Shown here piece by piece: positions 20,246-56,538 of a stretch of 64,000 nt of DNA; positions within the stretch are counted from its first letter, which is position 1; each line of letters starts with the position of its first letter. The translations under genes were made by a program, and so were the position numbers. Source of the stretch: Acidobacteriota bacterium (GTDB lineage Bacteria; Acidobacteriota; UBA6911); the NCBI GenBank assembly GCA_963664705.1, contig OY761556.1, positions 4,928,001 through 4,992,000 of the forward strand. Reading direction: 5' to 3'. The notes below the pieces were generated by a model. It was not told the origin of the DNA, ran no database searches, and was given only the letters and a program-made list of their open reading frames with translations.

Positions 20246-20273
20246 TCCGCTGAACACAGGAAGGAGCTACATA

Positions 20274-21248: not shown

Positions 21249-21292
21249 GTCTCAGACCGGCAGATGCAGAAAAGGATAAGGTAGGGATTGAT

Positions 21293-22504: not shown

Positions 22505-22538
22505 ACCGGAAGCGCCGACACCAACTGCAGTAGAGGAC

Positions 22539-23528
22539 ATGCGATACATAGAAAGCCCCTCGACCGACCCGGCCTTCAACCTGGCGCTCGAGCAATATCT
22601 GTTTGATACCCTGTCCTGCAATGAAGAGTACTTCATGCTCTGGCAGAACAGGGATTCCGTCATCATTGGCCTGCACCAGAATACGGCAGAAGAGATAAAC
22701 CAGGCCTATATCACTCAACACCACATTCCCGTCATCCGGCGTCTGTCGGGCGGCGGTGCCGTATTTCACGATTTGGGCAATATCAATTACTCTTTTGTTA
22801 CCCCGGCTCCGGATATTGGCAAATTGGACTACAGGTTCTTTTGCCAACCCATTATCGAGGCTCTTGAGGACTTTGGCCTTCGCGCGGAAACCAGCGGTCG
22901 AAACGATATAACCATCGACGGCAAAAAGTTTTCCGGCAATGCCCGGTATCTGCGCGGCGGCCGCCTGATGCACCACGGCACGATCCTGTTTGACACCGAT
23001 TTGGAAAAAATGGCGGAGGCCCTGCGCGTGCCGGAGGACAAGATCTTTTCAAAAGGTATAAAGTCCGTTCGCGCTCGAGTAACCAACCTCCGAGGCTATT
23101 TGCCCCGCAATCTGACTGCGCTGGAATTTCTGGCATTTCTGCACACCAGCATAGCCGGAAAGAGGGACATGTCCGCCTATACCATGACCGGGCAGGATTG
23201 GGATGCCGTGGAAGCGCTGCGACTTCGACGCTATGTGAACTGGGAATGGAACTACGGTCAGTCGCCGGATTACCGTATCAAAAAGCGCCGGCGCCTGCCC
23301 GGCTTCGGAGATATCCGGGTCAGCATGCAGGTGGAAAACGGCAGAATTACAGCTTTCGCAACCGACGGAGATTATTTCGGCTCCAGGCCCTGCGCCGATA
23401 TAGCCGCCGCGTTGATCAACACCAGGCTGGAAGAGAAGGCTTTGCTGGAGGTATTGGCCACTGTTCCGCTGGAGGAATTCTACGAAGGGCTTTCCCGGAA
23501 TGAATTTATCCGCCTCCTTCTCGAATAA
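22539..23528 (+). CDS. lplA: Lipoate-protein ligase A
   Basis: FNLALEQY, RRLSGGGAVFHDLGN, GRND..KKFSGNA, HHGT, WEWNYG. Confidence 0.93.
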   Translation: MRYIESPSTDPAFNLALEQYLFDTLSCNEEYFMLWQNRDSVIIGLHQNTAEEINQAYITQHHIPVIRRLSGGGAVFHDLGNINYSFVTPAPDIGKLDYRFFCQPIIEALEDFGLRAETSGRNDITIDGKKFSGNARYLRGGRLMHHGTILFDTDLEKMAEALRVPEDKIFSKGIKSVRARVTNLRGYLPRNLTALEFLAFLHTSIAGKRDMSAYTMTGQDWDAVEALRLRRYVNWEWNYGQSPDYRIKKRRRLPGFGDIRVSMQVENGRITAFATDGDYFGSRPCADIAAALINTRLEEKALLEVLATVPLEEFYEGLSRNEFIRLLLE

Positions 23529-23991: not shown

Positions 23992-25086
23992 TCATGCAAC
24001 ACGACCGATAGCCCAGATAAATCCTGCCAATTCTCGACTTACCGCAACCGCGATCTTTTGTCTTTCTTTCCCTCGGTTGAGCATGCGTCGGAATTTTTGA
24101 TTCAATCGCTTATCGCAACGTTGTGCAATCTCGATAACTTCTGCCGGCAAACACTCTCGTCGTTTCTTGAGAGTCTTGCCAGCTACTGAAGAATGACGGT
24201 AGTGCCAGGCGCTTTCGATCAGCACCCTACGTAGGTGGCTGTTTCCCGTTTTGGTTATCCTTCCCCGTCTTTCAAGTTCACCTGAGCTGCTTTCCGAAGG
24301 CACCACCCCAATAGCGGCCATAAACGAAGGCGCATCGACGAACCGTCTTAAATCGAGCGCTTCTGCGATAATCGTCATCGCCGTCAGAACCTGAACACCT
24401 TTTAGCGCCATCAAATAGCTGACTCGCTTTTGATAGTTCGGCTGTTTTGCAACTTCCTCGATTTTTCCCTGGAATGTTTTCAACCGCTCCGTCTGTTGCT
24501 CAAGCGCCTGTCGATATTCCTCCAGTACTGTTTGATCCCCATCATCCTCAAACACAAGGCTCTAAATCCACTTTAGGTGCCCAAGCGACCAGTTCTTGCC
24601 CTGCGGATATTTCAATCCACGTCGCATCAGAAACCGTGCTAATCGATGCCGTGCTCGCTGCTGGTCTTCCAATGCGTCTTCTCGCGCACGCACCAGATCT
24701 CGCAGACTTTCCTGTTCTTTTTGCGGGATCACAATACATGTTAGTTCTCCCGCTCGGTACAATTTGCCCAAGGCTTTCGCATCCAGCTTATCCGTTTTTA
24801 CTTTTTTCCCCGCTCGTCTCGGAGTCAACGAAGGGGCCGCAACCTCACAAGAAATCCCATGTTTGGCCAAATAGCGCTGCAAATAGTATCCATTAACGCC
24901 CGCTTCGTAGACGCACCGTACATCATCTTCAAATGCCCTTAGCTTTTTCGCTAACCGACCCAGCCCCGTACTGTCGTTTGATACAACAAGTTCTTCTCGA
25001 GGGTTACTTTCCTGCCCGCGAAAAATTGCGACGTTTATCTTTTTTGCTGAATCATCCATCCCTACCCAAGTGATACAATCTGCCAT
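23992..25086 (-). pseudogene. IS110 DEDD transposase/recombinase with in-frame TAG at 24562-24564 (codon 175)
   Basis: VGMD, YEAG, KTDKLDA RuvC residues; GVVPSESSSG and GRITKTGNSHLR Tnp20 motifs; both ORF halves in the same frame. Confidence 0.9.
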
Positions 25087-25394
25087 GATCGGTCTCCTCA
25101 TGTTTTATGGCTCTGCAGCTTCGTCACCACGACTTCAGCTGTAACCCACGATATTACATGCTAGAGACCGATCACTCCATTATGTCTACTTTCTATCGGG
25201 CCTCCGGCCCTTGCAAATCGCAGCCATTTCTGGGCGATTTTAGACGGGTCTGACTTTCTGAGGTTGCCTCCCCGGCTGAGGGACCTAAAACAGGCCACAT
25301 ATTTCGGATCGTGCCGCGACCGGGTCCTCTATTTATCAGCATTGCTGGAGTTCGCTTGGCATTTCTCCCAAATCGATAAAGTCAACGCATGCCC

Positions 25395-39275: not shown

Positions 39276-39319
39276 TTGACAATATGGTTGCTAGATACAA
39301 TACTTGCATTATGCAACTA
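39276..39319 (+). promoter_or_regulatory. Promoter and probable MarR operator of the marR-hgcAB-arsM operon
   Basis: TTGACA (39276) N17 AATACT, overlapped by palindrome TTGCAT-T-ATGCAA (39304-39316). Confidence 0.6.
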
Positions 39320-39336
39320 TATTGAAAGGGGCAAAT

Positions 39337-39822
39337 GTGGAGGCCAAGACAATCGAGCAGTTCCGAGCAAAGCTTCGTGAGATAGAGCGAGCCGTTTGGA
39401 TGCAAACCAAAAGCGAGGCGCTCTGCTGTGGCGTCACCATGGCTCAGTGTCATGCGATCCTCGAGATCAGCTCCGCCGGAGAAGTGAATTTAAAAGACCT
39501 GGCGGCCCGATTGGGCCTCGACAACAGCACACTTAGCCGGACAGTCGAAAGCCTCGTACAAGATGGATTGGTCGAGAGAACTTCAAGTAAGGAAGACCGG
39601 CGAGCCACTGTCATCAAGTTAAGTGAAAAGGGGCGCGCCGCCCGCGACCGCATCAACAAAACCTGGAACCAGATCTGCCGGGACATGTTTCGGAATATTC
39701 CCCACGAAAAACACGAGCAGCTCATCGAATCAGTGGCAATTCTGTCGGACCTGCTGACCGGTTGTTGCCGCAACCAGTGTTCCCCGAACGGAAGCACGGC
39801 CAAGCGGAGGACCAATGTCTAA
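39337..39822 (+). CDS. Cys-rich MarR-family transcriptional regulator
   Basis: wHTH LAARLGLDNSTLSRTVESLVQDGLVER..EDRR; CCGVTMAQC and GCCRNQC. Confidence 0.9.
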   Translation: MEAKTIEQFRAKLREIERAVWMQTKSEALCCGVTMAQCHAILEISSAGEVNLKDLAARLGLDNSTLSRTVESLVQDGLVERTSSKEDRRATVIKLSEKGRAARDRINKTWNQICRDMFRNIPHEKHEQLIESVAILSDLLTGCCRNQCSPNGSTAKRRTNV

Positions 39823-40861
39823 CTCATGCTGCTGTTCAACTCCGCAAAGCTCAAACCTTGTCCCGCTGGCTGATTTTAAGGAGTGCGCCGGGAAAGCGGC
39901 CAAGGTTACCTCGAGACTAAACAGGCGGGATCGACTGGGGATGTTCAAGTTCCGCTGGGGTATACGCCGCATGAGCTATGTGGTTGCTCCAGGCTTGTAT
40001 CAAATAGGAAGTCCCAACGAACACTCCCCGGTTCTGGTCACGGCAAATTTCAAAATGACTTTTGATATGGTCCGAAGCCAGCTGGACGGCATCAGTGCAT
40101 GGATTCTTGTGCTGAACACGCGCGGAATCAATGTTTGGTGCGCAGCCGGCAAGAGTACGTTCGGAACAGACGAACTCGTTCAACAGATTGAGAAGACAAA
40201 CCTTAAATCAGTGGTAACGCACCGGGAGATCATTCTTCCGCAGCTTGGCGCTCCTGGAGTTGCCGCGCATGAAGTCAGAAAGCGCGCGGGATTCTCAGTA
40301 ATCTATGGACCTGTTTATGCCCGAGATATCCGTGCTTTTCTGGCCGCCGGAAACCGCGCCACACCTGAAATGCGCAGGGTTCGATTTCATCTGAGAGACC
40401 GGATTGGTCTAATCCCCATGGAATTGATACCGGCGCTGAAGTGGGTTCCGGTGCTCGTCGCCTTGATCCTGATCATGAGGCTGGCGGATGGATCCGGCTT
40501 CCATGACGGTTTGCAGCGGGATCTGCTTGCATATCTGGGGACCATCGGGATAGGAGCGGCGGCGGTCCAGGTAGTACTGCCCTGGATTCCAGGGCGATCG
40601 TTTGTTTTAAAAGGCTGGCTTATGGGAATCCTATGGGCTGTATCTGTTTCGCTCTGGTTGAAGCCGAACCCCTGGATAGCGGTCTCCAATATTCTGGTCC
40701 TCCCCGTAATCCCGGCATACCTGGCATTGAACTTCACTGGGTCCACGACATTCACGTCATTATCCGGCGTGCAGAAGGAGATTCGCCTGGCAACTCCGGT
40801 CATGTTGGCGTCGGCCTGGATTGGAATAGTCCTGAGAATCGGACTGAGGCTGTGGAGCTGA
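39815..40861 (+). CDS. hgcA: Mercury methylation corrinoid protein HgcA
   Basis: Cap-helix GINVWCAAGK, PVLVTANFKMTFD, ILPQLGAPGV, GPV; C-terminal TM helices with NFTGSTTFTSLSGV. Confidence 0.95.
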   Translation: MSNSCCCSTPQSSNLVPLADFKECAGKAAKVTSRLNRRDRLGMFKFRWGIRRMSYVVAPGLYQIGSPNEHSPVLVTANFKMTFDMVRSQLDGISAWILVLNTRGINVWCAAGKSTFGTDELVQQIEKTNLKSVVTHREIILPQLGAPGVAAHEVRKRAGFSVIYGPVYARDIRAFLAAGNRATPEMRRVRFHLRDRIGLIPMELIPALKWVPVLVALILIMRLADGSGFHDGLQRDLLAYLGTIGIGAAAVQVVLPWIPGRSFVLKGWLMGILWAVSVSLWLKPNPWIAVSNILVLPVIPAYLALNFTGSTTFTSLSGVQKEIRLATPVMLASAWIGIVLRIGLRLWS

Positions 40862-40873
40862 AAGGAAAAACCT

Positions 40874-41164
40874 GTGAGCTTGATATATCTGAAAAATGTC
40901 TCGACCTTGAGAATGGATCCCTTCCGCTGCGGCGGTTGCGGAATGTGCGCGGCGGTATGCCCTCATGCGGTATTCCAGATTGAGAACCACAAAGCTCGAA
41001 TTGCAAACCCGGATTTCTGCATGGAGTGCGGTGCGTGCGCGAAAAACTGTGCCGCAAACGCCTTGACCGTTCGTGCTGGAGTAGGTTGCGCAGACGCGGT
41101 CATTCGCGGAAAACTCAGAGGAACGGAGCCCGTCTGCGGTTGTTCTCAGCAAGATTGTGGGTAA
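40874..41164 (+). CDS. hgcB: Mercury methylation ferredoxin HgcB
   Basis: CGGCGMC..VCPHAVF and CMECGACAKNC; GVGCA; Cys-rich tail; directly after hgcA. Confidence 0.93.
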   Translation: MSLIYLKNVSTLRMDPFRCGGCGMCAAVCPHAVFQIENHKARIANPDFCMECGACAKNCAANALTVRAGVGCADAVIRGKLRGTEPVCGCSQQDCG

Positions 41165-41191
41165 GCCCATCAAAACCGGAAGGACAAAAAA

Positions 41192-42058
41192 ATGGAAACA
41201 GCTGAGCTGGATGTAAAAAAACTGGTTAAAGAAAGGTATGGACTGGCGGCCACCCAGGCGCAGTCCGGTAGTCGCAGCTGCTGCGGGCCCTCGCCCAGCT
41301 GCTGTGGCGACAGCAGCGGAGTAGACCCCATTGTAAAAGATCTCTACAGTCTGAACGAAATGGCCGAGCTTCCGGAAAAGGCTGTCCTGGCTTCGCTTGG
41401 ATGCGGCAATCCCACGGCTTTGGCGGAGCTGAGTCCCGGCGAGATTGTACTCGATCTTGGTTCAGGCGGCGGGATTGACGTCCTTCTTTCCGCAAAGCGT
41501 GTGGGAAAGGAAGGCAGAGCATACGGACTGGACATGACCGATGAGATGCTCTCATTGGCTCGCGAAAATCAGCTCAAAGCCGGTGTACAGAATGCTGAAT
41601 TTCTTAAGGGTGAGATCGAGAATATTCCCCTGCCGGACAACTCGGTAGACGTGATTATCTCCAATTGCGTCATAAATCTCTCCGCAGATAAGGATCGTGT
41701 GGTAAAGGAAGCATTCCGGGTTTTGAAGCCGGGCGGCCGGTTTGCCGTTTCAGATGTTGTAGTGCTTGGTGATGTTCCGGCGGATATCCGGAGGAGCGTC
41801 GAACTTTGGGCCGGTTGCGTTGCAGGAGCGCTGCATCAGCAGGAATACTGTTCCAAGCTCGATAGTGCCGGATTCGAGGAGGTGCGGATTGAACCGACGC
41901 GCATTTATCATGGGCAGGAGGTCAGGGATCTTCTTTCCGGAACCGACCTCGGTACAGAAGCGATAATCGCCCAAATAGATGGTAAGTTCGCCAGCGCTTT
42001 CATTCGCGCTCGAAAACCCGCATCTTCATGCTGCAGCACCGGTTGCTGTAAAGGATAA
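41192..42058 (+). CDS. arsM: Arsenite S-adenosylmethionine methyltransferase
   Basis: SLGCGNP, LDLGSGGGID, GLDMTDEM, ISNCVINL, WAGCVAGAL; CC pairs at both termini. Confidence 0.95.
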   Translation: METAELDVKKLVKERYGLAATQAQSGSRSCCGPSPSCCGDSSGVDPIVKDLYSLNEMAELPEKAVLASLGCGNPTALAELSPGEIVLDLGSGGGIDVLLSAKRVGKEGRAYGLDMTDEMLSLARENQLKAGVQNAEFLKGEIENIPLPDNSVDVIISNCVINLSADKDRVVKEAFRVLKPGGRFAVSDVVVLGDVPADIRRSVELWAGCVAGALHQQEYCSKLDSAGFEEVRIEPTRIYHGQEVRDLLSGTDLGTEAIIAQIDGKFASAFIRARKPASSCCSTGCCKG

Positions 42059-42107: not shown

Positions 42108-42794
42108 TCACTTCTCCTCAATAAATCTTCTATAGGCCGACAACAGCGACGCGCTATACTGCGTTTCTTCTTCCGGCAGAATTCGATGATAAATCCTGAC
42201 TGAATCAAGCAAGGCTTTGCCGCCTGATTCCTCAGCAGGGATGGACCGTTTAACGCATTGTTCGAAAATTTGCGTGAGCCCGGGTATTGTTACCTCCTCC
42301 CCTCCAATAACCACCGTTCCGCCAGGAACCGGGCGAGAACATGCACAGGCAGTTCCGGAATTGTGCTGCGCCTCAGGAAAAGTCTCGATGCTCAATAAGA
42401 CTTCATCAATCCGGGCCGATATTTGTTCTGCAACCGTCCAGACAGCCTCCTGATCCGGCTTCGATGCGCTGCGAGATGAACGGCTGCATCCGGTTGCTGC
42501 CGTGCCAAGTATTTCCGATACAATAAGCGCGGCGCTTACAGGGCCGCTATTCTGTTCCGTTCCATACCGGGCACACTGCCTGGGACAGCCGTCAATTGTG
42601 ATTGTCGGATGGTTTTTTGCAAAATTCTGTTCTCCTTCGTTGCCTGCAATGAACAAGGGCAGACAGATGGTCACAGTCTTGTCGGGCCGGAGCAACTCAA
42701 GAACTCTCCTTGTAGCCAGCCTGGCAATCGTGCCCTCTGCGATGGATTCGCCACTGCAGGAGACTATCCCAACTTTTGTTATTTCCGCGCTCAT
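42108..42794 (-). CDS. DGC-domain putative zinc-binding protein with C-terminal CAC extension
   Basis: SCSG, ICL, IDGCPRQCA motifs. Confidence 0.8.
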   Translation of the reverse strand: MSAEITKVGIVSCSGESIAEGTIARLATRRVLELLRPDKTVTICLPLFIAGNEGEQNFAKNHPTITIDGCPRQCARYGTEQNSGPVSAALIVSEILGTAATGCSRSSRSASKPDQEAVWTVAEQISARIDEVLLSIETFPEAQHNSGTACACSRPVPGGTVVIGGEEVTIPGLTQIFEQCVKRSIPAEESGGKALLDSVRIYHRILPEEETQYSASLLSAYRRFIEEK

Positions 42795-42796
42795 CT

Positions 42797-43234
42797 CTAC
42801 ACCGCCTTGTCCAACCGCATTGCCTCAGCAGCAACGGTTTTGGCAACATCCTTTGTTATTGCCCACCCTTCTTCGCTCAGGTCTGTTGCAGTTCCGGGTT
42901 TTGCGCCCCGATATTTCTTGAAGGCTTCCGAGACCTGAGCGGCACAGGCAACCTTACCGCCTGCCATCTCAACATTCTTTTTAGCGCATGCCTTTGGACA
43001 TCCGTCGATCGTAATACAGGGTTGTGTTTTGATCGCCGAAACAGCTTCTGCGTCTTTTATGACCAGCAAGCCCAGGCACAATGTGTCGGTTTGGCCGGGA
43101 GCTAATTCATCGGTTACCAGATACGTCGCTTCCCGGCTGATCAACCCGTGCACTTTCCCAATGCCGCTGCACGGTATTACAAGCACAGGCTTTTTGTTAA
43201 TCATCGGTTTCTCCACAGTTTGCTTCAATGTCAT
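42797..43234 (-). CDS. DGC-domain putative zinc-binding protein
   Basis: PCSG, LCL, IDGCPKACA motifs. Confidence 0.85.
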   Translation of the reverse strand: MTLKQTVEKPMINKKPVLVIPCSGIGKVHGLISREATYLVTDELAPGQTDTLCLGLLVIKDAEAVSAIKTQPCITIDGCPKACAKKNVEMAGGKVACAAQVSEAFKKYRGAKPGTATDLSEEGWAITKDVAKTVAAEAMRLDKAV

Positions 43235-43473
43235 TCCTCGTTGGCCGCGATCAGCTGTTTTATTTCATCCGTTGATGGGACTCTGCCGGCAACTTTGAGA
43301 ACACCATTGATGACCAGTCCTGGTGTCATAAGAATTTCAAATTTCAGAATGTCTTGAATTGCGGTTACCTTCTCGATTTCAGCATTCAAGCCAAGTTCCT
43401 TAACAGCTTTTTCCGCGTTTAATGCCAGCGTTTTGCATCTTGGGCACCCGGTCCCCAGTATCTGAATTTTCAA
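43231..43473 (-). CDS. Small thioredoxin-like redox protein, MTH895/ArsE family
   Basis: TTG start after AGGGAGA; KIQILGTGCPRC, TPGLVING. Confidence 0.88.
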   Translation of the reverse strand: MKIQILGTGCPRCKTLALNAEKAVKELGLNAEIEKVTAIQDILKFEILMTPGLVINGVLKVAGRVPSTDEIKQLIAANEE

Positions 43474-43493
43474 GCATCTCTCCCTTCTGCTGT

Positions 43494-43949
43494 TCAGTCG
43501 CACACTGTGCTGATTTCAGGCTCGAGAACCAATTCCGATTTGATTGAGTTCGCCACAAGGCTGTATTTAACAGCGCTGTCCAAAGCTCGCTGCAATCTCT
43601 TGAGAGTGTTATTGTGATTTGAGGCATCGGTCCGCAAAACAATACGTGGCCGCAGCAGGACCTGCGTGAATGTTTCAGTCCGATCGAGTTCAATCTGCTT
43701 TCTGCCCTCGGCATTGCATTGGTAGCTGACCAGATCCAGCTTGTATCTCTTAGCCGACCAGATGAACATCATCATCACGCACATGTTGACTGCGGCCACA
43801 AATGCATCCTCCGGTGTGAGCACTCCTTCGTGTCCATGAGCATCTGGAGGTGCGGAAAAATCCATTTCAGGGCCATTCCCCATTCGGATACGTCCCCAGT
43901 GTTCGCCTTTCCATTCCACCGTTGTGTTATAAACTGCGGTTTGTGACAT
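43494..43949 (-). CDS. OsmC-family protein
   Basis: SAPP...TPEDAFVAAVNMC; second Cys position reads KYSLVANS. Confidence 0.82.
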   Translation of the reverse strand: MSQTAVYNTTVEWKGEHWGRIRMGNGPEMDFSAPPDAHGHEGVLTPEDAFVAAVNMCVMMMFIWSAKRYKLDLVSYQCNAEGRKQIELDRTETFTQVLLRPRIVLRTDASNHNNTLKRLQRALDSAVKYSLVANSIKSELVLEPEISTVCD

Positions 43950-43974
43950 TGGTATTCCCCGAAACTGGTTTTGA

Positions 43975-44433
43975 TCAGGCCTGCAGCTCCGCCTCAGCCT
44001 GCTGCTTTGCAATTTTTGCGTATTCGCCGGCATCCAGGAGCTTGTTCATTTCGTGCTCAAGCTTTTCGACCTCCAGGATCGCCATCCAACCGCTGCCATA
44101 TGGATCTCCATTGATCAGTTCCGGCGATTCCTCGAGCGCCGGGTTGATTTCGACAACTTTCCCTTTCATTGGGGAAGGAAGACTTATATTTACCTTTACA
44201 GTCTCGATACTGGCGATTTCGTCACCGGCTTCCAGCCGACGGCCCAATTCCGGTAGATTTGCGAATGCAATATCTCCATTCCTTTGCTGGGCAAAGTCGG
44301 CTAAACCCAGGCGAGCCAAATCACCCTCCTGTTTGATCCACATGCCCGAATCGCTGTACTTCAATCCCGCAGGAAATTTAAATATGAATTTATCAACGGT
44401 GATACTGATGATGTCATTTGCATTACCCGGCAT
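43975..44433 (-). CDS. Glycine cleavage H-like lipoyl carrier protein (orphan)
   Basis: RLGLADFAQ..GDI, IETVKV lipoyl-Lys, SPMKG, PELINGDPYGSGW. Confidence 0.88.
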   Translation of the reverse strand: MPGNANDIISITVDKFIFKFPAGLKYSDSGMWIKQEGDLARLGLADFAQQRNGDIAFANLPELGRRLEAGDEIASIETVKVNISLPSPMKGKVVEINPALEESPELINGDPYGSGWMAILEVEKLEHEMNKLLDAGEYAKIAKQQAEAELQA

Positions 44434-44471
44434 ATTCGCTACCTCGCTTCAAAAAACGGGATGTGGACTTC

Positions 44472-44957
44472 CTACTTGGCAATCTTCTGCTTCACCATCG
44501 AGTATCCCTTCTCGTCCCAAAGGATCAGCCCGCCCTCCAGAACCTTCACATTCTCACTTCTATATCCCAGTTGCCTGAATTCCAGTGCCATTTTTGCGCT
44601 GTCGGTTCCCTCTTCGCACAAGCAGTAGATCACTATCGGCTTGTCCATTGGCAATCCCATCATAGAAAGCTGTCTTTGAGCGGGATCGGCCATGGCATCG
44701 TAAGTAATGTTGATCGACGAAGGTATGTGCCACATTTCGTATCCCTCCGCCGATTGGGTATCCACAATGATGATGTCCGCCTTTTTCTTTAACAGCTGAA
44801 CAAGTACTTTGGCAGGCATCCTCGGAACCTCGGGATGGGCGAGCTTGGCTTTGGTTTCCGCCTTCTGAACGACGGCGCTCTTATTCTGGGAAAAAGAAAT
44901 CAGGCAACAACCGGCCATTATCAAAGCAAGCATTGCCGGTATCTTCCGGTTCTTCAT
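44472..44957 (-). CDS. Exported single-domain rhodanese
   Basis: Signal peptide; WHIPSSINI, YCLCEEGTDS loop, VKVLEGGL..W. Confidence 0.85.
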   Translation of the reverse strand: MKNRKIPAMLALIMAGCCLISFSQNKSAVVQKAETKAKLAHPEVPRMPAKVLVQLLKKKADIIIVDTQSAEGYEMWHIPSSINITYDAMADPAQRQLSMMGLPMDKPIVIYCLCEEGTDSAKMALEFRQLGYRSENVKVLEGGLILWDEKGYSMVKQKIAK

Positions 44958-44974
44958 TTATTGGCTCCTTCGGG

Positions 44975-45472
44975 CTACTCAGATATCTTCTCTTTATACA
45001 TTGGATAGCCTTTTTCATCCCATTTCGTCAGGCCGCCTTCTAATACCTTCACATTCTTCCAGGCATGCCCCAGGCGTCTTAATTCCAATGCTTCCTCGGA
45101 ACTGTCCACTCCTTCCTCACATAGGCAATAGAGCACGACCAATTTTCCGACAGGTATCTTCTTCAGTTTTCTATCCCGGCTGGCACCACCATCCAACGAG
45201 TTATACGGGATGTTGATTGCGGATAGAATATGCCAGGAATCGAAGAAGTCTTTGGGATTAACGTCGATCAGCACGAGATCCGCTTTTTTCGCAAGCAGGT
45301 CCTTTAATTCATTAGCGGGTATCCGCTGCACCTCAGGGTGAAATATTTTCGGTTTTCCAGGATTCGGAGTAGTTCGCTCCTGTGCGGCGCAAATGCTTTC
45401 CTCAACACCAAAACAAATCGCAAAGAAAAGAAAAATCCTCAGAAATTGATAGTTGGTGAATACCCTCTTCAT
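44975..45472 (-). CDS. Exported single-domain rhodanese (paralog)
   Basis: Signal peptide; WHILSAINIP, YCLCEEGVDS loop, VKVLEGGL..W. Confidence 0.85.
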   Translation of the reverse strand: MKRVFTNYQFLRIFLFFAICFGVEESICAAQERTTPNPGKPKIFHPEVQRIPANELKDLLAKKADLVLIDVNPKDFFDSWHILSAINIPYNSLDGGASRDRKLKKIPVGKLVVLYCLCEEGVDSSEEALELRRLGHAWKNVKVLEGGLTKWDEKGYPMYKEKISE

Positions 45473-45488
45473 GATTGCAATTTCCTTT

Positions 45489-46757
45489 CTATGGGCATTG
45501 GATAATTCCTTGAGCCCACAGACAGCCTCCGCAGGTTGGGAATGTACTCCCCATGCAATCCTGTTCATTTTCTGCAAAAAGCCCGCAACCGCCACAGTAG
45601 GTGCAGGGCGCAAAATCAAAGCTCTGGACGCGCTCACGAAATTGCAGATATTCCAACTCATTCCAAAGGGCCATAATTGGACGTTCGTTTACATTTCCGA
45701 CTGCATATTGCCGCGAGAATCGCTCGATGCCATCGACATGGTTTCTGTGACTATGAAGAAGAGGAAGGCAGGGACTGAGAGCTCCATCCCACCGGATGGC
45801 ACAGGCTCCGCTTTCGATGAACGGGCAGTAGTCATTGCCTTCACCAAAATGATTGCGAGCAAAGGTCAATCCGTGTCCGGCATGTAGGGATGAATAAAGT
45901 GAGCCCTTCGTCACTTCGTCTACATCGATTTTCGGAAGATCGAGCCTGTAAACGGAAGAGTGATAAAGCACGTTCCGCAGAGCTTTTGAATACAGGATTT
46001 CCTTCTCCATCTCTCCACTGTAAGGAATGACATTGGTTACCATCACAGTTCCAACTCCCAGTTTTTGGGCGAGCGGAAGCAGCAGAGGAAGATCATGAAA
46101 ATTCCTCTTCATTGCCACAAATACAATTCCAATCTCGGGTCTCACATGATATTTGGAGAAAGGAGAGGGTGACGGTGCGCGGACGAATATCCGTGTGTTA
46201 TGAAAGACCTTGAGGTTTTCGATCACATCAGGCAATAAAGCGCCCAAACGTATGTCGCCATAGGATTCTGGGTTTGCACCATCCAGAGATACCCACAGAC
46301 GGTCCAGCCCGGCTTCAATCAGTCCTTCAGACATCTGCTTTGTCAGCAATGTGCCATTGGTGATCAATTCCACCGTGGAACCTAGGGCCTTTGCCTTTGC
46401 AACCATCTCGATGATATCTGGATGAGAAAGCGGTTCGCCGAGCCCGCCGAAAAAGACGCTGGGTGGCGTGGGAGATTCCTTCAGCCCCTCCATTATCCTC
46501 GAAAAAGAGCCGTTGCTCATGGTGCCCATGGGCTCATTCCAGGCATTTCTCATGCAGGTTCGGCATTCAAGATTGCATCGGTTTGTCGGCTCTATATATA
46601 ACTTTTTCAGAAGTGTAACCGGCAAGCGAAGCCGTAATCCCTTGGCGGTTTCCTCCACGCACACATGTGCTCCAGCCATAAGCCCATACTTGCGTACGAA
46701 TTCCTCCGGGAATACCAGCTCTCCATTTTTGTTTACCAGGGCCAGATACCTATCCAT
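45489..46757 (-). CDS. Radical SAM/SPASM enzyme with N-terminal AbrB-like domain (resembles tungsten-oxidoreductase maturase family)
   Basis: CNLECRTC, GGLGEP, CPF..WDG..SPC, CTYCGGC..DC..CGGCLWAQGIIQCP. Confidence 0.9.
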   Translation of the reverse strand: MDRYLALVNKNGELVFPEEFVRKYGLMAGAHVCVEETAKGLRLRLPVTLLKKLYIEPTNRCNLECRTCMRNAWNEPMGTMSNGSFSRIMEGLKESPTPPSVFFGGLGEPLSHPDIIEMVAKAKALGSTVELITNGTLLTKQMSEGLIEAGLDRLWVSLDGANPESYGDIRLGALLPDVIENLKVFHNTRIFVRAPSPSPFSKYHVRPEIGIVFVAMKRNFHDLPLLLPLAQKLGVGTVMVTNVIPYSGEMEKEILYSKALRNVLYHSSVYRLDLPKIDVDEVTKGSLYSSLHAGHGLTFARNHFGEGNDYCPFIESGACAIRWDGALSPCLPLLHSHRNHVDGIERFSRQYAVGNVNERPIMALWNELEYLQFRERVQSFDFAPCTYCGGCGLFAENEQDCMGSTFPTCGGCLWAQGIIQCP

Positions 46758-46777
46758 CTCGTTTCCCTGCTGAAAAT

Positions 46778-48055
46778 CTACGGACACCTTACTATGCCTT
46801 GAGCCCACAAACAGCCTCCGCAGGCCGGGATCGGACTTCCTATGCAATCTTCCTGGTTGGATTCAAACAACTCGCACCCGCCGCAAAGAATGCATGGAGA
46901 GAAATTGAATTCCTGGACGCGTCTGCGCAACGTGAGGTAGTCGGGCTTATTCCAAATATCCCATAGGCTCTGGGCCAGCACATTTCCAAATACGTGGCGC
47001 TTTAGTGAGCGTTCATATTTGTGCAGATACGCTTTGTGGTCGTGCAGGAGTGCAAGGCAGGGGCTTACATCGCCATCCCACCGGATTGCCAGAGATCCTC
47101 TCTCAACAAACGGGCAGGAATTATTTCGTTCTCCCAATCCGGCGCCTGAAATGCTCAAGTAATGATTACCCCGCATTGCATGATAAATGGCTTCCCTGGT
47201 TATCGGGCTGACATCCATTTTGGGGAAATCCAGCGAGCGCAATAACGGCGCCGACGTATAAATGGCATCTGAAATCGCTCGGGAATACAGGATTTCGTTT
47301 TCCATTTCAGGCAGGTAGGGAATTATATTTGTTACCAGAAACTGCAGGGAGCCCAGCTGATTCGCCAGGCTGAACATAGCGGGAAGATCCCCGATATTTC
47401 GCCTCATTGCCACAAAAACAACCCCCAACTGCGGTTTCAGAAACTGGTCAAAGCCGCCAAAATCCATCATGGGGGAATAACGGATACGCCGGAACTGCTG
47501 CAGATTGGAAATGACCTCCGGCAGCGCTGCTCCCAGTCGAACGTCTTTGTAGCTCTCGGGAGTCGCTCCATCGAGCGATACCCACAGCATGTCGAGTCCT
47601 GCTTCAATCAGCTGTTTGGACAGGTTTTGTGTCAACAGTGTTGCGTTTGTAATCAGTTCGACATAGGATCCGCTCGATTTCAGTTCTCTCACCATCTCCA
47701 CGATATGCGGGTGCGAAAGCGGTTCTCCGAGGCCTCCTAAAAAGACACTTGGCGGTGCCGGCAGGTTCTTGATGCCTTTGACGATATTGGAGAAGACGCT
47801 TGAAGGCATTTCCCCAAGCGGCTCATCCCAGCTGCGGCGTATGCAGGTAACACAATCCAGATTGCAGCGATTCGTGGGCTCTATATAGACGCGGGCCAGG
47901 TGGGTCACGGGACGCAGCAGGTGCATCCCGTTCGCGTTGTTTTCGAGGCGGACCCGTGTTCCCGGCTTCAGGTCATATCTCTTTACAAGTGCTTCCGGGA
48001 GTACCAGGCGTCCCGATTCATCCACGGTTGCGTCAAAGCCGTCCTCAATCTTCAA
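46778..48055 (-). CDS. Radical SAM/SPASM enzyme with N-terminal AbrB-like domain (paralog)
   Basis: TVDESGRLVLPEALVKRYDLKPG AbrB motif; CNLDCVTC; CILCGGC..CGGCLWAQGIVRCP. Confidence 0.9.
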   Translation of the reverse strand: MKIEDGFDATVDESGRLVLPEALVKRYDLKPGTRVRLENNANGMHLLRPVTHLARVYIEPTNRCNLDCVTCIRRSWDEPLGEMPSSVFSNIVKGIKNLPAPPSVFLGGLGEPLSHPHIVEMVRELKSSGSYVELITNATLLTQNLSKQLIEAGLDMLWVSLDGATPESYKDVRLGAALPEVISNLQQFRRIRYSPMMDFGGFDQFLKPQLGVVFVAMRRNIGDLPAMFSLANQLGSLQFLVTNIIPYLPEMENEILYSRAISDAIYTSAPLLRSLDFPKMDVSPITREAIYHAMRGNHYLSISGAGLGERNNSCPFVERGSLAIRWDGDVSPCLALLHDHKAYLHKYERSLKRHVFGNVLAQSLWDIWNKPDYLTLRRRVQEFNFSPCILCGGCELFESNQEDCIGSPIPACGGCLWAQGIVRCP

Positions 48056-48067
48056 CTGCCACCCTCT

Positions 48068-48763
48068 TTAAAATCCCGTGAAACCGAAAATGCTTTTAAG
48101 CAATAGATACAGGCCCGCAGCAATAAACACATACGCGGTTGCCTTGCGCACCCACTTTTCGATTTGGGTTAGCCGGTCAAAAAACCTTCCAAGCGATTTC
48201 ATGCCGAATGCCATTACGATGGCAAAACCAATCACAGGCAGCGCCGTTCCCAGACCATAGACCGAAGGCATCAGGACCGCGGACTTGCCGTCTACTGCAA
48301 GAGGAATAAGGCTTCCAAAATACAGGGCGGCCGAGAGTGGGCAAAAAGTTAGGGCAAACACTATACCCAGCAATCCGGAACCCCAGAGCCCTAAGCGACC
48401 GGCCCGGTCTTGGACCGAAGAGCTGAAAACCGATGCGGAAAAGGATATCGGCAGCACTTCAAGCAGGACAATTCCCACAATGATCAGGAGCGGCCCGATT
48501 ACTTTGTGCATGTTTGTTTCGAGGAAGAATGAAACTTCCGGAAGCGAGAGCAGACTTGCCACGGCCAAAACCGCGATCACAATATAGACCAGCATTCTTC
48601 CTATCGAGTAAATGACTCCGCTCCAAAACACTTTTTGCGACGACCCCATGCTCCTGGCCACGAATGATATCGCTGCAACATTGGTGGCGAGCGGACACGG
48701 ACTGATTGACGTCAGAACTCCCAACCAAAATGCCGAAAATACGTTCAGGTACCAGCTTTCCAT
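48068..48763 (-). CDS. DsbD/CcdA-like membrane protein, ArsG family
   Basis: SISPCPLATN and FALTFCPxSAALYFG; about 6 TM helices. Confidence 0.82.
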   Translation of the reverse strand: MESWYLNVFSAFWLGVLTSISPCPLATNVAAISFVARSMGSSQKVFWSGVIYSIGRMLVYIVIAVLAVASLLSLPEVSFFLETNMHKVIGPLLIIVGIVLLEVLPISFSASVFSSSVQDRAGRLGLWGSGLLGIVFALTFCPLSAALYFGSLIPLAVDGKSAVLMPSVYGLGTALPVIGFAIVMAFGMKSLGRFFDRLTQIEKWVRKATAYVFIAAGLYLLLKSIFGFTGF

Positions 48764-48772
48764 GGATATCCC

Positions 48773-49219
48773 CTACATGCCGGCCAGATAGCCGCGGACT
48801 TCCTTGCGAACATAATTGAGGAAAGCCTCTTTGTGGCCGGTCAGTTGCCATACCATCTTTAGATTCGTCCATTTGGTTTGTTTGCCGTTCACCATGCTCA
48901 CCAGAACGAGCGACTTGGAAACGAGCTTGTAATCCTGAATAAAATGCCGGTTCATGGGATCCTCATAATTGACAACCCTCATTTCCAGAGTTCCATTTTT
49001 CAGCTCATTCGGAAAGCCCTGTTCTATTGCCTCATGAGAGAACTGCTCTATTTTCACGCAGGTGCTGCACCGCGTATTGGTGTGGAAGTAATAGGCTATA
49101 ACCTTGTGCTGGCCGGTGTTTGTTTCAGGTTGCCGCGCTTCGGCAAACAATCCGGAGGCCAATAGCACAATTGTTGCAACCGAGAAAAGCAATAGAATCA
49201 GTCTTATGTTTCTGGTCAT
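48773..49219 (-). CDS. Exported thioredoxin-fold protein, ArsF family
   Basis: Signal peptide; YYFHTNTRCSTCVKIE. Confidence 0.8.
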   Translation of the reverse strand: MTRNIRLILLLFSVATIVLLASGLFAEARQPETNTGQHKVIAYYFHTNTRCSTCVKIEQFSHEAIEQGFPNELKNGTLEMRVVNYEDPMNRHFIQDYKLVSKSLVLVSMVNGKQTKWTNLKMVWQLTGHKEAFLNYVRKEVRGYLAGM

Positions 49220-49231
49220 GGTATTGCCTCA

Positions 49232-49657
49232 TCATTCCTGGCTTAAGTAAGTTCCCTCCGCCAACGAACCATCCATCAAGGCGGGATATTCCCGTTCTGG
49301 AGGATAGGGATCCAGTCTGCAGGCGCCATTCCGAACCGCTTCCTTCAGTCGAACCAGATCCTCTTTCATGACTTGGTCCTTGGGACAGCATTTGTCCAAC
49401 AGCTCAAAGAGAGCCTCTATTTGAGCTGTGCCTGGAGGCACAAGGGAATAGATGATCCGGCTTCCGCTCCGGCAATCTTCTACAAGTCCTGAATGCCTCA
49501 AGGCAGCGAGATGGCGGGACGCCATCGTTTGTGAAATCCTGAGTACCGCATGCAGTTCACATACACAGATGCTCCCCAATCTAAGCAGGTTGAGCAGTCG
49601 GAGCCTTGTCGGATCCGATACGGCCTTGAACAACTGGTCAAGCGGTTGTTGTCTCAT
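49232..49657 (-). CDS. arsR: ArsR/SmtB-family repressor
   Basis: [27 protein letters not shown]. Confidence 0.92.
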   Translation of the reverse strand: MRQQPLDQLFKAVSDPTRLRLLNLLRLGSICVCELHAVLRISQTMASRHLAALRHSGLVEDCRSGSRIIYSLVPPGTAQIEALFELLDKCCPKDQVMKEDLVRLKEAVRNGACRLDPYPPEREYPALMDGSLAEGTYLSQE

Positions 49658-49668
49658 CGATCTATTCC

Positions 49669-49690
49669 TATATGCGCTTATGCGAATATA
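49669..49690. promoter_or_regulatory. Probable ArsR operator 1
   Basis: TATATGCGC-TTAT-GCGAATATA, 8/9 inverted repeat just upstream of the leftward arsR. Confidence 0.65.
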
Positions 49691-49769: not shown

Positions 49770-49798
49770 TTGACTGCATTCGTTAAACCGCATATACA
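49770..49798 (+). promoter_or_regulatory. Promoter of arsR-acr3 with probable ArsR operator 2
   Basis: TTGACT-N17-TATACA; ATTCG..AA.CGCATATA matches operator 1 reverse complement. Confidence 0.6.
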
Positions 49799-51468: not shown

Positions 51469-52767
51469 ATGAAAGAAAGAAATACGGATGCACCGGGGAT
51501 AACGACATTACCGGACCAACCCGCCGATCCATTGACCAAGGTTTATGTTGAACCAACCAACCGCTGCAACCTAAGCTGTGTTACCTGTATCCGTCACTCC
51601 TGGGATGAATCCTATGAGGATCTGGCGTGGCCAGCTTATGAAGCTCTGATTAACGGATTGGCCGATTTTCCTGAAGCCAAAACCATCGCCTTTGCCGGCT
51701 TCGGTGAACCCCTTCTACATCCGCGCTTTACCGAAATGGTCCGTCTTGCTCACGAAAAAGGATTACGCACGGAAATGACCAGCAATGCCATGCTTCTCAC
51801 CTCATCAATGGCAGAGCAACTGGTTGACGCCGGGCTGGATCAATTCACGGTCTCTATTGACGGAACCTCGAATGAATCTCACGGAACCGTCCGGCCAGGC
51901 GCCTCCCTGGAAGAAATCACAGACAATGTGCGCAGGCTATATTCGTGGAGCCAAAAGAAATGCATTGCTCAACTGGATATCGAACCGGCCCTTAAAGAAG
52001 AAATGCTCAAACACCTGCTGGATTCAGGCGGAACGCTTTATGGGCTTCTCGATATGATGAGTTACAAAGTTCCTATCGAAGGCGCTTTGGATCAGGCGCC
52101 TCCGGCCCCGCTCAAGATCGGGATCGAGTTTGTGGCAATGAAGAGCAACATTCACGAACTGCCGGCCCTTCAAAAGATCGCGAAGCATGTCCGGGCCTCT
52201 TTTATTCTTGTTTCGAACGTGCTGCCGTATACCCCCGAGCTTCAGGATGAGATCCTTTACAGCCTGGAAACAACCAGCTACGAGGGTGAGGGGGATGATC
52301 GTAATCCGCACTGGATTTTCCCAAAAATGGATCGTATTTGGGATAAGGTGAACTCTATATCAACCGCTCCCGGTCAGCAGCCAAGTCTCAGCTATCTGGA
52401 TATCAACTTGAATCAGCGAAATAACTACTGCCCCTTTATAAGACCGGGAAGCCTGGCGCTATCCTGTCATGGGAGCGTGAGCCCGTGTCCTCCATTGCTG
52501 CATTCGTATACCTGTTATGTAAGAGACTGGAAGAAATTCTTCCGTCATTGTGAATGGGGAAGTCTAAAGGAACGATCCCTGAAATCAATTTGGCAACAGC
52601 CTGATTATGCCGCCTTTAGGGATCGGGTTAGGCGATTCGATTTTGCTCCCTGTACGGATTGCGGTGGCTGTGAATACTCTGAAAAGAACGAGGAGGATTG
52701 CCAGGGCAATCCTTTCCCCGTCTGTGGCGATTGCCTGTGGGCCAGAGGCATTCTGCGCTGTGCGTAA
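51469..52767 (+). CDS. Radical SAM/SPASM enzyme, third paralog, no AbrB domain
   Basis: CNLSCVTC, GFGEP, CPF, CTDCGGC..CGDCLWARGILRCA. Confidence 0.9.
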   Translation: MKERNTDAPGITTLPDQPADPLTKVYVEPTNRCNLSCVTCIRHSWDESYEDLAWPAYEALINGLADFPEAKTIAFAGFGEPLLHPRFTEMVRLAHEKGLRTEMTSNAMLLTSSMAEQLVDAGLDQFTVSIDGTSNESHGTVRPGASLEEITDNVRRLYSWSQKKCIAQLDIEPALKEEMLKHLLDSGGTLYGLLDMMSYKVPIEGALDQAPPAPLKIGIEFVAMKSNIHELPALQKIAKHVRASFILVSNVLPYTPELQDEILYSLETTSYEGEGDDRNPHWIFPKMDRIWDKVNSISTAPGQQPSLSYLDINLNQRNNYCPFIRPGSLALSCHGSVSPCPPLLHSYTCYVRDWKKFFRHCEWGSLKERSLKSIWQQPDYAAFRDRVRRFDFAPCTDCGGCEYSEKNEEDCQGNPFPVCGDCLWARGILRCA

Positions 52768-54313: not shown

Positions 54314-54879
54314 CGGCCCACCAGGCTTTAGCATAAAGGCACAGCATTTAAGCGGGCTACGCGGCATTTGGGGGATCCTTAAGCAGACGCGTTTTATGTA
54401 TCATCAGCACAATGGAGCTGACCACAAATACGCCTATCGCTGCCCTCCCATTGACAACCGCTAAATGGAGAAATTGGATCGCAACGCCCCGAACGAAGCC
54501 AATCCGCGGTCGACACATCTCAATTGGCACAATGTTCAGCGGGGCGTTGGGACCTTACTCAACGCAACATCGGATTCCACCTGGATGGCAGTATACGTAT
54601 GTATGATCATAGGAGTGGAGGATGACACATGGCTACGAACCTATTCCTTTTGGCACGATCGAGGTTCATTTGGCCCAGCTGTGTTTACGCATTGCCAGAC
54701 ACGCTCCATTGGCTTTGATAGAAGATTAATCCGGCAAATTCCTTCCACAGCAGCGGCGCCCCAGCTCATTATCCAGGTTGGAGTGGCTGTTGACGCGCAA
54801 TTCCCTATTCCCTATACTCGGCTCACTGCCGATAGGCGACTTGTCATCACAAACCTGGATCTGCGAAAGGAGGCACAAA

Positions 54880-56538
54880 TTGGCCGCAAGACTACGTTCC
54901 GCATTGTTCATGCTTATTCTCATGGCTGTTTGTTCCACGGCATATTCTGCCGAAAAAGTCAGGGTGTTGAACCCAACGCCACCGAACCACATGGTCGATC
55001 GCATACCGCTTGTCCCGAGGCTCAATTCCCTGGACGGAAAGACTATATTCCTGGTGGATATTGGCTGGGGAGGAGAGAATGCCGCCCCAAGCATTTATGA
55101 TGAAATGAAGGCATGGTTTGCCAAGAACATGCCGAGCGTAAAAATAGAAGTCAGAAAAATCAAAGGCTTCTATATGCAGGATCAGCCGGAACTCCTGAAA
55201 GAAATATCCGAAAAGGGAGACGCGGCAATGTTCGGAATAGCCGGTTGAGACAGCTGCACATCGGCCGTCGGCCGAAACTGCAAACAGCTGGAACAGCAAT
55301 ACAAAATTCCCACTGTCGGGGGCATTGCATCCAACATCATCAAGTATGCCCAGGGACACGACTTCGAATATACGAACGGTTCGCCCATTCGATATATCTC
55401 ATTTCCTTTTCCTGTAGCAGGGCAGCCTCAATCGGTTCATCACCGCTATATATTTGAAAGCAAGGATGTGGTGAGCGGAAAACCGATGATGCAGGCATTC
55501 GTCGATGCCCTGACCCTCCCGTTGACCAGCAGCGAAAAATACAAAGGACCGGCCCCGGATCCCAATCCGGCGGAATCCCGCTTTCTTGGACCCGACACGG
55601 AAGCAAACCTGCAGCGCCTGTTCAAAGACAATGACTGGACGGACTATCTTCCAATTGCCCTTCCGACCGAAGAGCGTGTGGCAGACATGCTGAAAGGCAC
55701 GTCTCATAAACCGACCGAAGTCATCAAAGTATTGGACTGGCCGGGAGGCAGGCGTGAAGTGACGGTGGAAAGGGTAGCAATTTGTGCGGTCATGGCCGGC
55801 GCCAAGCGGGAATATCTTCCGGTGATCCTCGCTCTGGCCAATCACATTCCTTTTGGAAACTCCACATCCTCCATGGCCAACATGATCCTGGTCAACGGAC
55901 CCATTCGCGATGAAATTGGCATGAATTACGGCCACAATGTCATGGGACCGCATAATGAAGCCAATGCAGTGATCGGCCGTGCGTACACACTAATGTCGAA
56001 GACAATCGGCGGTCTGCATAGCAAAAAAACGACCTGGAGCACCCTCGGAAGCTCTCTGCAATACAACAATGTATGCATCGCGGAGAACGAGGAGGCGCTG
56101 CCCGGAGGGTGGAAGCCCTTTCATGTGCAGGCGGGGTTCAAACCTGGCGAAAGTGTCATTACCGTGGCAACCGGCTGGTCCTACATTTCCAGCGTAACGG
56201 AAGCCAAGAGAGAATATCCCGTTCATATGTGGATGGGCGAGTATATGAAGGCTCTCACGATGGGATCGGCCACGGTCATTATGGATCCTTCCGTTGCCAG
56301 TCTTCTGAAGGATGCCTACGGTTTCCAGACCAAGGACCAGTTGGCCAAATGGTTTGCGGAAAACGTCGAAAAGACCGAGTTTGCTTCCGGACAGAAGGTA
56401 AAACCGTTCCGGGAAGCCTCCGTCAATGTGGTCGTTACCGGGGGCGGGGGCCAGACAACATGGTTCGTAACCGATTTCGGGATGAGCCGGAACATGGTTC
56501 TCGCGGGAGGAAGTACGCGCATCGACGACTGGCGCTAG
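54880..56538 (+). CDS. Probable exported selenoprotein of the UGSC family (UxxC, in-frame UGA at 55246-55248)
   Basis: AAGGAGG RBS before TTG; signal peptide; ORFs 54778-55248 and 55468-56538 join in frame through one TGA giving GIAG-U-DSC; SECIS-like hairpin follows; WTDxLPIxxPTEERV and NAVIGRA motifs. Confidence 0.8.
55251..55290 (+). promoter_or_regulatory. Candidate bacterial SECIS element
   Basis: TCGGCC-GTC-GGCCGA hairpin with loop G 19 nt after UGA, enclosed by CAGCTG/CAGCTG. Confidence 0.6.

Follow-up and report, generated by a model that had tools for sequence, protein, structure and literature searches.

Do twelve genes packed behind a single ArsR repressor encode one pathway, or do they bring together several modules? 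The question arises from a 64,000-nucleotide stretch of an Acidobacteriota bacterium genome (contig OY761556.1, positions 4,928,001 to 4,992,000; hereafter the window, part of a 6.9 Mb genome in one contig), in which twelve minus-strand open reading frames (ORFs) at 42108-49657 had been taken, in an earlier sequence-only reading, for a candidate new arsenic-sulfur pathway. They were found to form an accessory operon, headed by arsR, within an arsenic island and to be built from three separately occurring blocks: block A, arsR-arsF-arsG together with arsE; block B, two AbrB-radical-SAM genes and two CxC rhodanese genes; and block C, gcvH-osmC-arsE-DGC1-DGC2, hereafter the core. The arsenic link, the thiol relay and the lipoyl role of that reading were supported, while the single arsenic-sulfur pathway was not.

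Layout and probable arsenic control of the operon

All twelve ORFs run in the same direction and in the order noted earlier, with intergenic gaps, for the chosen starts, of 0, 9, 12, 20, 16, 17, 38, 25, 17, -4 and 2 nt; four starts were shifted to the codon after a purine-rich stretch (the second radical SAM gene at 46757, rhodanese 1 at 45472, osmC at 43949 and arsE at 43476). The GC content of 48-52% matches the flanks. Family names were assigned by Pfam and NCBIfam profiles, with scores given below as bits/cut-off, and these calls agree with every name proposed for the twelve genes. Thus, an ArsR-led operon with gaps of no more than 38 nt (-4 to 38 nt here), its family assignments and its position between hgcAB-arsM and arsR-acr3 were all borne out, the last by profile matches in the flanks (HgcA 424.9/275, HgcB 120.5/99, ArsM 362.2/263 and Acr3 454.7/282.8); marR-hgcA-hgcB-arsM converges on the operon from the left, and arsR-acr3 diverges from it on the right. 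When ars markers were counted in 344 genome tiles of 20 kb, only 2 tiles carried one if ArsM-like methyltransferases were excluded, and 19 if they were included; given this rarity, the ars setting of the operon is not due to chance.

The first gene (49232..49657, minus strand) encodes an ArsR/SmtB repressor (NF033788 84.9/55) that bears a CVC motif (Cys31, Cys33) and a CC pair (Cys90, Cys91). Its predicted operator is an imperfect palindrome at 49669..49689 (minus strand), 11 nt before the first start codon of the operon (19.6 bits), and a second predicted operator, that of the divergent arsR-acr3 unit, lies at 49776..49796 (plus strand; 30.0 bits). The two related boxes stand within the 164-nt gap separating the divergent arsR genes and have a 79% inverted match to each other. 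The matrix that scored them came from the arsR-acr3 promoters of relatives, which supplied 11 distinct boxes, with the window's own left out; genome-wide it ranked the acr3 box as the best site and the box of the twelve-gene operon as joint second, equal to one unrelated site. The acr3 box was kept in 16/16 aligned promoters, and like boxes were found upstream of arsR-arsF-arsG-rSAM in locus L230, of arsR-rSAM in L238 and of arsR-gcvH in L046 (rSAM, radical SAM gene). In Pseudodesulfovibrio ND132, an arsR-arsP-arsE-DGC operon (DND132_2311-2314) is arsenic-induced (10.1101/2022.10.17.512643). Based on the shared operator boxes and the ND132 induction, the operon is likely under arsenic control, and the arsenic linkage that had been proposed is also supported by ars neighbours in most related loci. 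A scan of the locus for sigma-70 promoters and terminators gave matches at chance level only, and none of the sequencing runs listed as holding it was an RNA dataset.

Separate occurrence of the blocks

The conservation of the operon was followed from three anchors. A scan of species genomes with an OsmC profile yielded at least 463 confirmed relatives, of which the best 80 were kept as genome loci (by title Acidobacteriota and Chloroflexota, with two Planctomycetaceae and one Acidimicrobiia), and 80 further loci were taken from metagenomes; these loci share kinship. The closest titled OsmC relatives among the best 80 were Acidobacteriota, 74-82% identical, which makes that phylum likely for the host as well. 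The 80 genome loci held the core genes gcvH in 69, DGC1 in 71, DGC2 in 75, the thioredoxin gene (trx) in 72 and arsR in 62 cases, and the ars genes acr3 in 36, arsC in 32, arsG in 24, arsF in 18 and arsM in 12, while radical SAM genes were counted in 18, lpd in 8, rhodanese genes in 3 and hgcA in none. When the 14 loci with less than 2.5 kb upstream of OsmC were removed, the remaining 66 had gcvH in 65, DGC1 in 63, DGC2 in 63, trx in 60, arsR in 59 and an ars marker in 50, and gcvH, DGC1 and DGC2 stood together in 63. Likewise, 32 of the 33 loci with 9 kb on each side carried all three, and 29 an ars marker. Gene order was gcvH-DGC1-DGC2-osmC in 59/66; the window-type order gcvH-osmC was rare (6/66).

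A reverse test with a GcvH profile matched 8/301 genomes of the host phylum and 45/251 of one Chloroflexota class. Loci were taken for 6 of the 7 foreign phylum matches and 37 of the 45 class matches; the centre genome and seven further ones, for the most part with matches close to contig starts, were not included. By sequence, the copies split into 35 module-type (score of at least 156 or an N-terminal DKF/DKY motif) and 8 ordinary ones (ESVK). The module-type loci held both DGC genes in 35, OsmC in 32, arsR in 34, an ars marker in 22, a radical SAM gene in 7 and a rhodanese gene in 1. In the 8 ordinary loci, DGC, OsmC and arsR were all absent (0/8), and an ArsA-like ATPase was nearby in 2. 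Four of the 35 repeat OsmC-anchored loci; the other 31 gave both DGC in 31, OsmC in 28, arsR in 30 and an ars marker in 20. Viral contigs and plasmids returned ordinary GcvH matches only, and DGC2 was found in 1/301 genomes in the phylum of genome G342. Uncultured bacteria of sediment and sludge frequently carry the core, as seen from the OsmC relatives and from the Chloroflexota class, in which 29 of the 37 loci taken were module-type.

The full twelve-gene set in window order was absent from the 160 OsmC-, 35 GcvH- and 20 radical-SAM-anchored loci, so that one conserved unit of twelve genes was rejected, and the neighbourhood check suggested with the sequence-only reading went against it: only blocks recur. 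All ten families are present in locus L028, but divided between two strands. In L230, a head of arsR-arsF-arsG-rSAM-rhodaneses is followed by a second arsR and a variant core with a DGC-GcvH fusion; this joining of the head to a different core variant indicates that the blocks are exchangeable. A single pathway, with rhodaneses, radical SAM enzymes and the lipoyl carrier together making or processing thio- or methyl-arsenicals or building a cofactor, is therefore considered very improbable. It would explain the tight packing of twelve genes behind one box, the recurrence of the radical SAM clade in ars loci of two phyla (15/20 anchored loci with an ars marker), and the cysteine desulfurase (5/80) and TauE (17/80) genes that recur close to the core among the OsmC-anchored genome loci. 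However, the core came without a radical SAM gene in 62/80 and without a rhodanese gene in 77/80 loci, the radical SAM gene came without gcvH in 16/20, a second arsR separates rhodanese and core in L230 and L232, and the rhodaneses are predicted outside the cytoplasm, apart from GcvH and the radical SAM enzymes.

Equally slight is the chance that this ArsR senses a non-arsenic signal, be it sulfane sulfur or a soft metal of another kind, and that the module drifted into ars islands. The ArsR/SmtB family is broad, TauE is a frequent neighbour, and 13/35 GcvH-anchored loci have no ars marker other than arsR, but the operator box is similar to that of acr3 both in this window and in L230, L238 and L046, the repressor bears CVC and CC, and 29 of the 33 full-flank loci carry ars markers.

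The neighbourhood of hgcAB was found to be local, since hgcA was absent from all OsmC-anchored loci (0/160); it was also absent from the GcvH- (0/35) and radical-SAM-anchored (0/20) loci, and the marR-arsM genes of relatives come without hgcAB. A link of the operon to hgcAB was rejected, as none of these loci holds hgcA.

Block A contains an ArsF-family protein with a CxxC motif (48773..49219, minus strand; NF040494 115.9/60), predicted to be exported by its hydrophobic N-terminus, an ArsG-family, CcdA/DsbD-type membrane protein (48068..48763, minus strand; NF040495 282.9/200; DsbD_2, PF13386) and, six genes away from arsFG, the ArsE/MTH895 mini-thioredoxin (43231..43476, minus strand; TIGR00412 101.6/62). 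ArsG holds both CcdA/DsbD-type membrane cysteines, Cys23 and Cys141, and ArsE, like ArsF, carries a CxxC. These features are consistent with the trans-envelope thiol relay that had been suggested.

In block B, the two AbrB-radical SAM/SPASM enzymes, rSAM1 (46778..48055, minus strand; PF04055, PF13186, and PF04014 at 24.3/24.7) and rSAM2 (45489..46757, minus strand; placed by Pfam/NCBIfam profiles and tree), are 51% identical. Matches to rSAM1 occurred in 21/29 genus genomes. Among 20 loci anchored on the radical SAM enzyme (of 38 places listed), an ars marker was present in 15, the enzyme directly followed arsG in 12, and a rhodanese gene was found in 7, gcvH in 4 and AOR in none. A quick tree of 67 sequences, whose non-genus rows were picked through OsmC, placed both window enzymes in a mostly AbrB-bearing clade from ars loci of two phyla, distinct from the 11 copies linked to AOR. 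Although arsenic-linked, the pair can be separated from the core. Although TIGR04317, a tungsten-cofactor maturase family, is the best family match of both enzymes, with the same SPASM cysteine pattern and a genome paralogue behind AOR-moaD, this identity was rejected: the scores of 285.9 and 288.8 lie below the cut-off of 380, and the window enzymes differ by an N-terminal AbrB, a clade of their own and no AOR in the 20 loci. ArsL, ArsS and LipS1/LipS2 profiles were not in the best 25 of the 38 and 45 family matches for the pair. A third radical SAM gene behind acr3 (51469-52767, plus strand) encodes a protein that shares 69% identity with the genome's other copy, the one behind AOR-moaD, and falls within the AOR-linked clade; one relative (L230) occupies the same ars position. 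The genome has 25 matches to AFOR_C (aldehyde ferredoxin oxidoreductase C-terminal), an unusually high number.

The two rhodanese-fold proteins (protein 1, 44975..45472; protein 2, 44472..44957; both minus strand), 51% identical, match PF00581 (53/22.2), with the rhodanese fold and an active-site Cys. Their best 11-residue Kyte-Doolittle means of 2.8-2.9 at the N-terminus, next to 2.9 for ArsF and at most 1.72 for seven other soluble proteins tested, support the earlier view that they are exported, which stays a prediction from these hydrophobic stretches. The family was found in 28/29 genus genomes, chiefly as a distant copy, and the close copies come after a radical SAM gene. Both window copies and 10 of 12 matches in relatives have the loop YCLCEEGxDS, the other two matches being fragments. 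Sulfurtransferase rhodaneses have a basic active-site loop, CRxGxR/T, and rhodanese-fold arsenate reductases of the Acr2/Cdc25 type the motif HCX5R. The acidic CLCEEGxDS loop is unlike the former, which makes a thiosulfate sulfurtransferase, and with it the assumed sulfur transfer, less likely; an Acr2/Cdc25-type arsenate reductase is not supported either, for neither Cys has a preceding His or an Arg six residues after it. Given this loop and the hydrophobic N-termini, the rhodaneses are better read as exported dithiols, putatively served by ArsG and ArsF, than as sulfur donors.

The lipoyl core and a possible thiol relay

The central protein of the core is a second GcvH, a putative lipoyl carrier without Cys (43975..44433, minus strand; TIGR00527 123/115.85). 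It matches the H-protein profile above cut-off and keeps the lipoyl lysine: Lys80, Glu77 and Thr78 are invariant in 64/64 aligned full relatives, which suggests that the lipoyl dithiol role proposed earlier is sound. Its identity to the genome's other GcvH, which follows an ORF read by eye as GcvT, is 35%. Core GcvH proteins are acidic (isoelectric point 4.05-4.92, median 4.44), and neither gcvT nor gcvP was found beside the core gcvH here or among recurring neighbour families of related loci. The host encodes LipA, Lpd and LplA, the last 19 kb away inside the window, where 2-oxoacid dehydrogenase E1 alpha, E1 beta and E2 genes stand with a lipoate-protein ligase gene and without Lpd (19274-23528, plus strand).

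The next gene (43494..43949, minus strand; PF02566) encodes an OsmC-fold protein, as supported by Foldseek matches to 2onf (E 1.7e-13) and 2d7v. The peroxidatic Cys57 was found in 81/81 aligned relatives, and Cys78 is conserved besides, while Ser130 aligns with the resolving Cys of 2d7v and 2onf; this position is Ser in 77/81, and the remaining 4 with Cys are a second paralogue. Such a second OsmC, with both catalytic cysteines, lies directly upstream of gcvH in 6/160 loci (L036, L040, L041, L044, L132 and L134), and three distant OsmC loci (18-20 kb taken) had neither GcvH nor DGC.

DGC protein 1 (42797..43234, minus strand) has three invariant cysteines in the alignment (22, 79 and 83), and DGC protein 2 (42108..42794, minus strand; model pLDDT 87) has four (13, 44, 70 and 74) and a CxC (150, 152) in a low-confidence flexible linker of the model, ahead of a small extra C-terminal domain. 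They score 56.7 and 52.3 against the PF08859 cut-off of 27. No solved relative of the DGC proteins was found by sequence search, and ESM Atlas gave no usable match for the C-terminal domain of DGC2 or its stand-alone copy. Bound metal may be present in the DGC proteins: Zn is proposed, and Fe-S or As is possible. A predicted complex of DGC1, DGC2(1-140) and GcvH scored 0.00 and weighs neither way. Stand-alone copies of the DGC2 C-terminal domain with an N-terminal CC pair were seen at L043:12541-12876, which matched nothing in Pfam, NCBIfam or the Atlas, and L197:12120-12413. In 8/80 loci, a Cys-rich micro-ORF of 65-70 aa (CxC, CxxC and a C-terminal Cys; e.g., L069:661-867) without a family match sits between arsR and gcvH.

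Redox partners recur near the core. An Lpd gene (TIGR01350 515/408.8) begins 9-127 bp upstream of gcvH in 8/80 genome and 2/80 metagenome loci, and AhpD-like genes occur in 10/80 OsmC-anchored genome loci. In the fusion variant (L191, 8661-10163; L192, L230, L232 and L238), OsmC is replaced by a Cys-rich 125-aa protein, without a Pfam family match, a ferredoxin and a DGC-GcvH fusion, followed by DGC1 and DGC2. The fusion is matched by 1163 proteins at E 1e-50, with both Pfam domains in 120/120 of those listed and the lipoyl Lys and four Cys invariant; at E 1e-55 it was not found in 401 Chloroflexota genomes.

Taken together, the core may be an arsenite-induced relay from NADH through Lpd and lipoyl-GcvH to the thiols of DGC, OsmC and ArsE, serving arsenic reduction or thiol recycling, a reading to which we give slightly less than an even chance and whose every chemical step is inferred. 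As(III) would release ArsR from its box, host LipA or LplA would lipoylate GcvH Lys80, and an NADH-linked Lpd would reduce the lipoyl arm. The arm would then hand electrons to the Cys clusters of DGC1 and DGC2, which would hold the arsenical, and also to the dithiols of ArsE and the OsmC-fold protein. In the end, pentavalent (methyl)arsenicals, or the disulfides that arsenic handling leaves behind, would be reduced, and the output would feed Acr3 efflux and ArsM. ArsE, ArsG and ArsF would relay electrons through the membrane to ArsF and the pair of CxC rhodaneses. The relay is favoured because of the adjacent lpd and two-Cys OsmC genes, the DGC-GcvH fusion, the invariant Lys and Cys residues, the position of the core beside ars genes and the operator box. 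In the literature, Ohr/OsmC enzymes receive their electrons from lipoylated proteins and depend on two cysteines, one peroxidatic and one resolving (PMC5384416), and for Hyphomicrobium a GcvH-like protein was proposed as the electron donor of OsmC (10.64898/2026.10.01.755906).

Several points weigh against this relay. Lipoic acid is a main target of trivalent arsenic (PMC11154318, PMC12608789), its dihydrolipoyl form being the classic target of As(III) (PMC11154318), and carrying electrons during arsenite exposure would be an unusual role for it. The OsmC without a resolving Cys is not the usual lipoyl acceptor, and OsmC is absent from the fusion variant. Lpd adjoins the core in only about 1/10 of the loci and not in the window. 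The need for a second line of reductant is not evident, since the host has the thioredoxin reductase TrxB and ordinary ArsC accompanies the core in 30/66 loci. The DGC2 model had no Foldseek match at E 0.001, its best hits (Z 8.4) being general alpha/beta folds. Thirteen of the 35 GcvH-anchored loci (stretches of 5.9-19.9 kb) lack an ars marker beyond arsR, several of them stand-alone arsR-core operons, some in Anaerolineae without ars pumps, and the reverse test is not fully independent, because its GcvH profile was derived from OsmC-anchored loci.

The same affinity of lipoic acid for As(III), classic in the two sources just cited, raises an alternative that we hold unlikely, though the least so of the competing explanations: As(III) or MAs(III) would be soaked up by reduced lipoyl-GcvH, then stripped off by the Cys clusters of the DGC proteins and passed to Acr3, ArsM or ArsD/ArsA. 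Such a decoy and hand-off system would shield the 2-oxoacid dehydrogenases, with Lpd merely keeping the arm reduced. The three- and four-Cys sets of the DGC proteins, the CxC on a flexible linker, the stand-alone DGC2-domain copies with CC, the lost resolving Cys of OsmC and the mostly non-adjacent Lpd all fit binding. However, Lpd, two-Cys OsmC, AhpD-like proteins, ferredoxin and Cys-rich partners recur near the core, so that net electron flow fits better than binding alone.

A general thiol/peroxide repair chain of L-protein, H-protein and OsmC, switched by ArsR through arsenite thiol stress and without arsenic chemistry, is less probable still. It draws on the lipoyl-dependent peroxidase activity of Ohr/OsmC (PMC5384416), on the AhpD-like genes and on the Anaerolineae stand-alone operons without pumps, but the resolving Cys of OsmC is replaced by Ser in nearly all relatives, the constant partner of GcvH is the DGC pair (35/35) rather than OsmC (32/35), and the three distant OsmC loci come without GcvH or DGC.

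The relay reading also allows a bolder version, which is tentative and rather doubtful: GcvH-DGC1-DGC2 would be a new arsenic enzyme class of anaerobes with lipoic acid as working cofactor, the arm being recharged by NADH/Lpd in the OsmC variant, as here, or by ferredoxin in the fusion variant. It would reduce methylarsenate or strip trivalent arsenic off poisoned dithiols, and a radical SAM clade of its own, found in arsenic islands, would be an optional addition. If the core does reduce or remove methylated arsenic, this would bear on organoarsenical cycling by anaerobes, whose enzymes are, to our knowledge, poorly known. The DGC domains, a family without a solved structure, gain a partner with which they can be tested, and the core, with its five small soluble proteins, lends itself to a simple in vitro test. 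The host genome has no match to PF01451 (thioredoxin-type ArsC) and one weak match to PF03960, despite acr3 and two arsM copies; the core as the missing ArsC was rejected, because ArsC accompanies it in the 30 loci given above. Glutathione synthetase above cut-off was not found in the host genome.

Relation to known systems and neighbouring features

The ArsEFG families and DGC genes in ars operons are already known. Chen, Zhang and Rosen reportedly described in 2019 that ArsEFG of Shewanella confers resistance to nitro-aromatic arsenicals. The window resembles that system in having ArsE, ArsF and ArsG above cut-off, under ArsR and near acr3 and arsM, but differs in the distance of arsE from arsFG. 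With the ND132 operon it shares DGC genes within an ars operon; to both, the window adds a lipoyl carrier, an OsmC in altered form, its own type of DGC pair, and two each of radical SAM enzymes and rhodaneses. The lipoyl-dependent Ohr/OsmC peroxidases (the L-protein/H-protein/OsmC chain of Trichomonas and GcvH_1-OsmC of Hyphomicrobium) likewise have an orphan GcvH-type carrier beside OsmC, sometimes with Lpd upstream, whereas the window core differs by the missing resolving Cys, the extra Cys78, the obligate DGC pair, ArsR control and the OsmC-free fusion variant. The sHdr-LbpA system of sulfur oxidisers also uses a GcvH-like carrier outside glycine cleavage, but the core carrier is instead acidic like GcvH-type acceptors, and no sHdr or lipoate ligase cluster was among the neighbour families occurring in at least 3/80 loci. 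The open-access literature, outside which most subscription papers lie, gave no account of a lipoyl-DGC core, of an ars operon with gcvH and arsenite, or of TIGR04317, and for PF08859 the ND132 study only. The window contributes the shared operator, a set of twelve genes that divides into blocks, and the radical SAM clade of arsenic islands together with its rhodaneses.

Elsewhere in the window, a UGSC-family-like ORF (PF24696, slightly below cut-off) is followed by a 356-aa ORF without a Pfam or NCBIfam match (54778-56538, plus strand), and an IS110-family transposase at 23992-25101 (minus strand) is broken into two ORFs. The left-flank genes marR-hgcA-hgcB-arsM form one tight run at 39304-42058 (plus strand), and the host is likely a mercury-methylating Acidobacteriota; an inverted repeat with 21-nt arms at 39280-39324 overlaps the start of marR.

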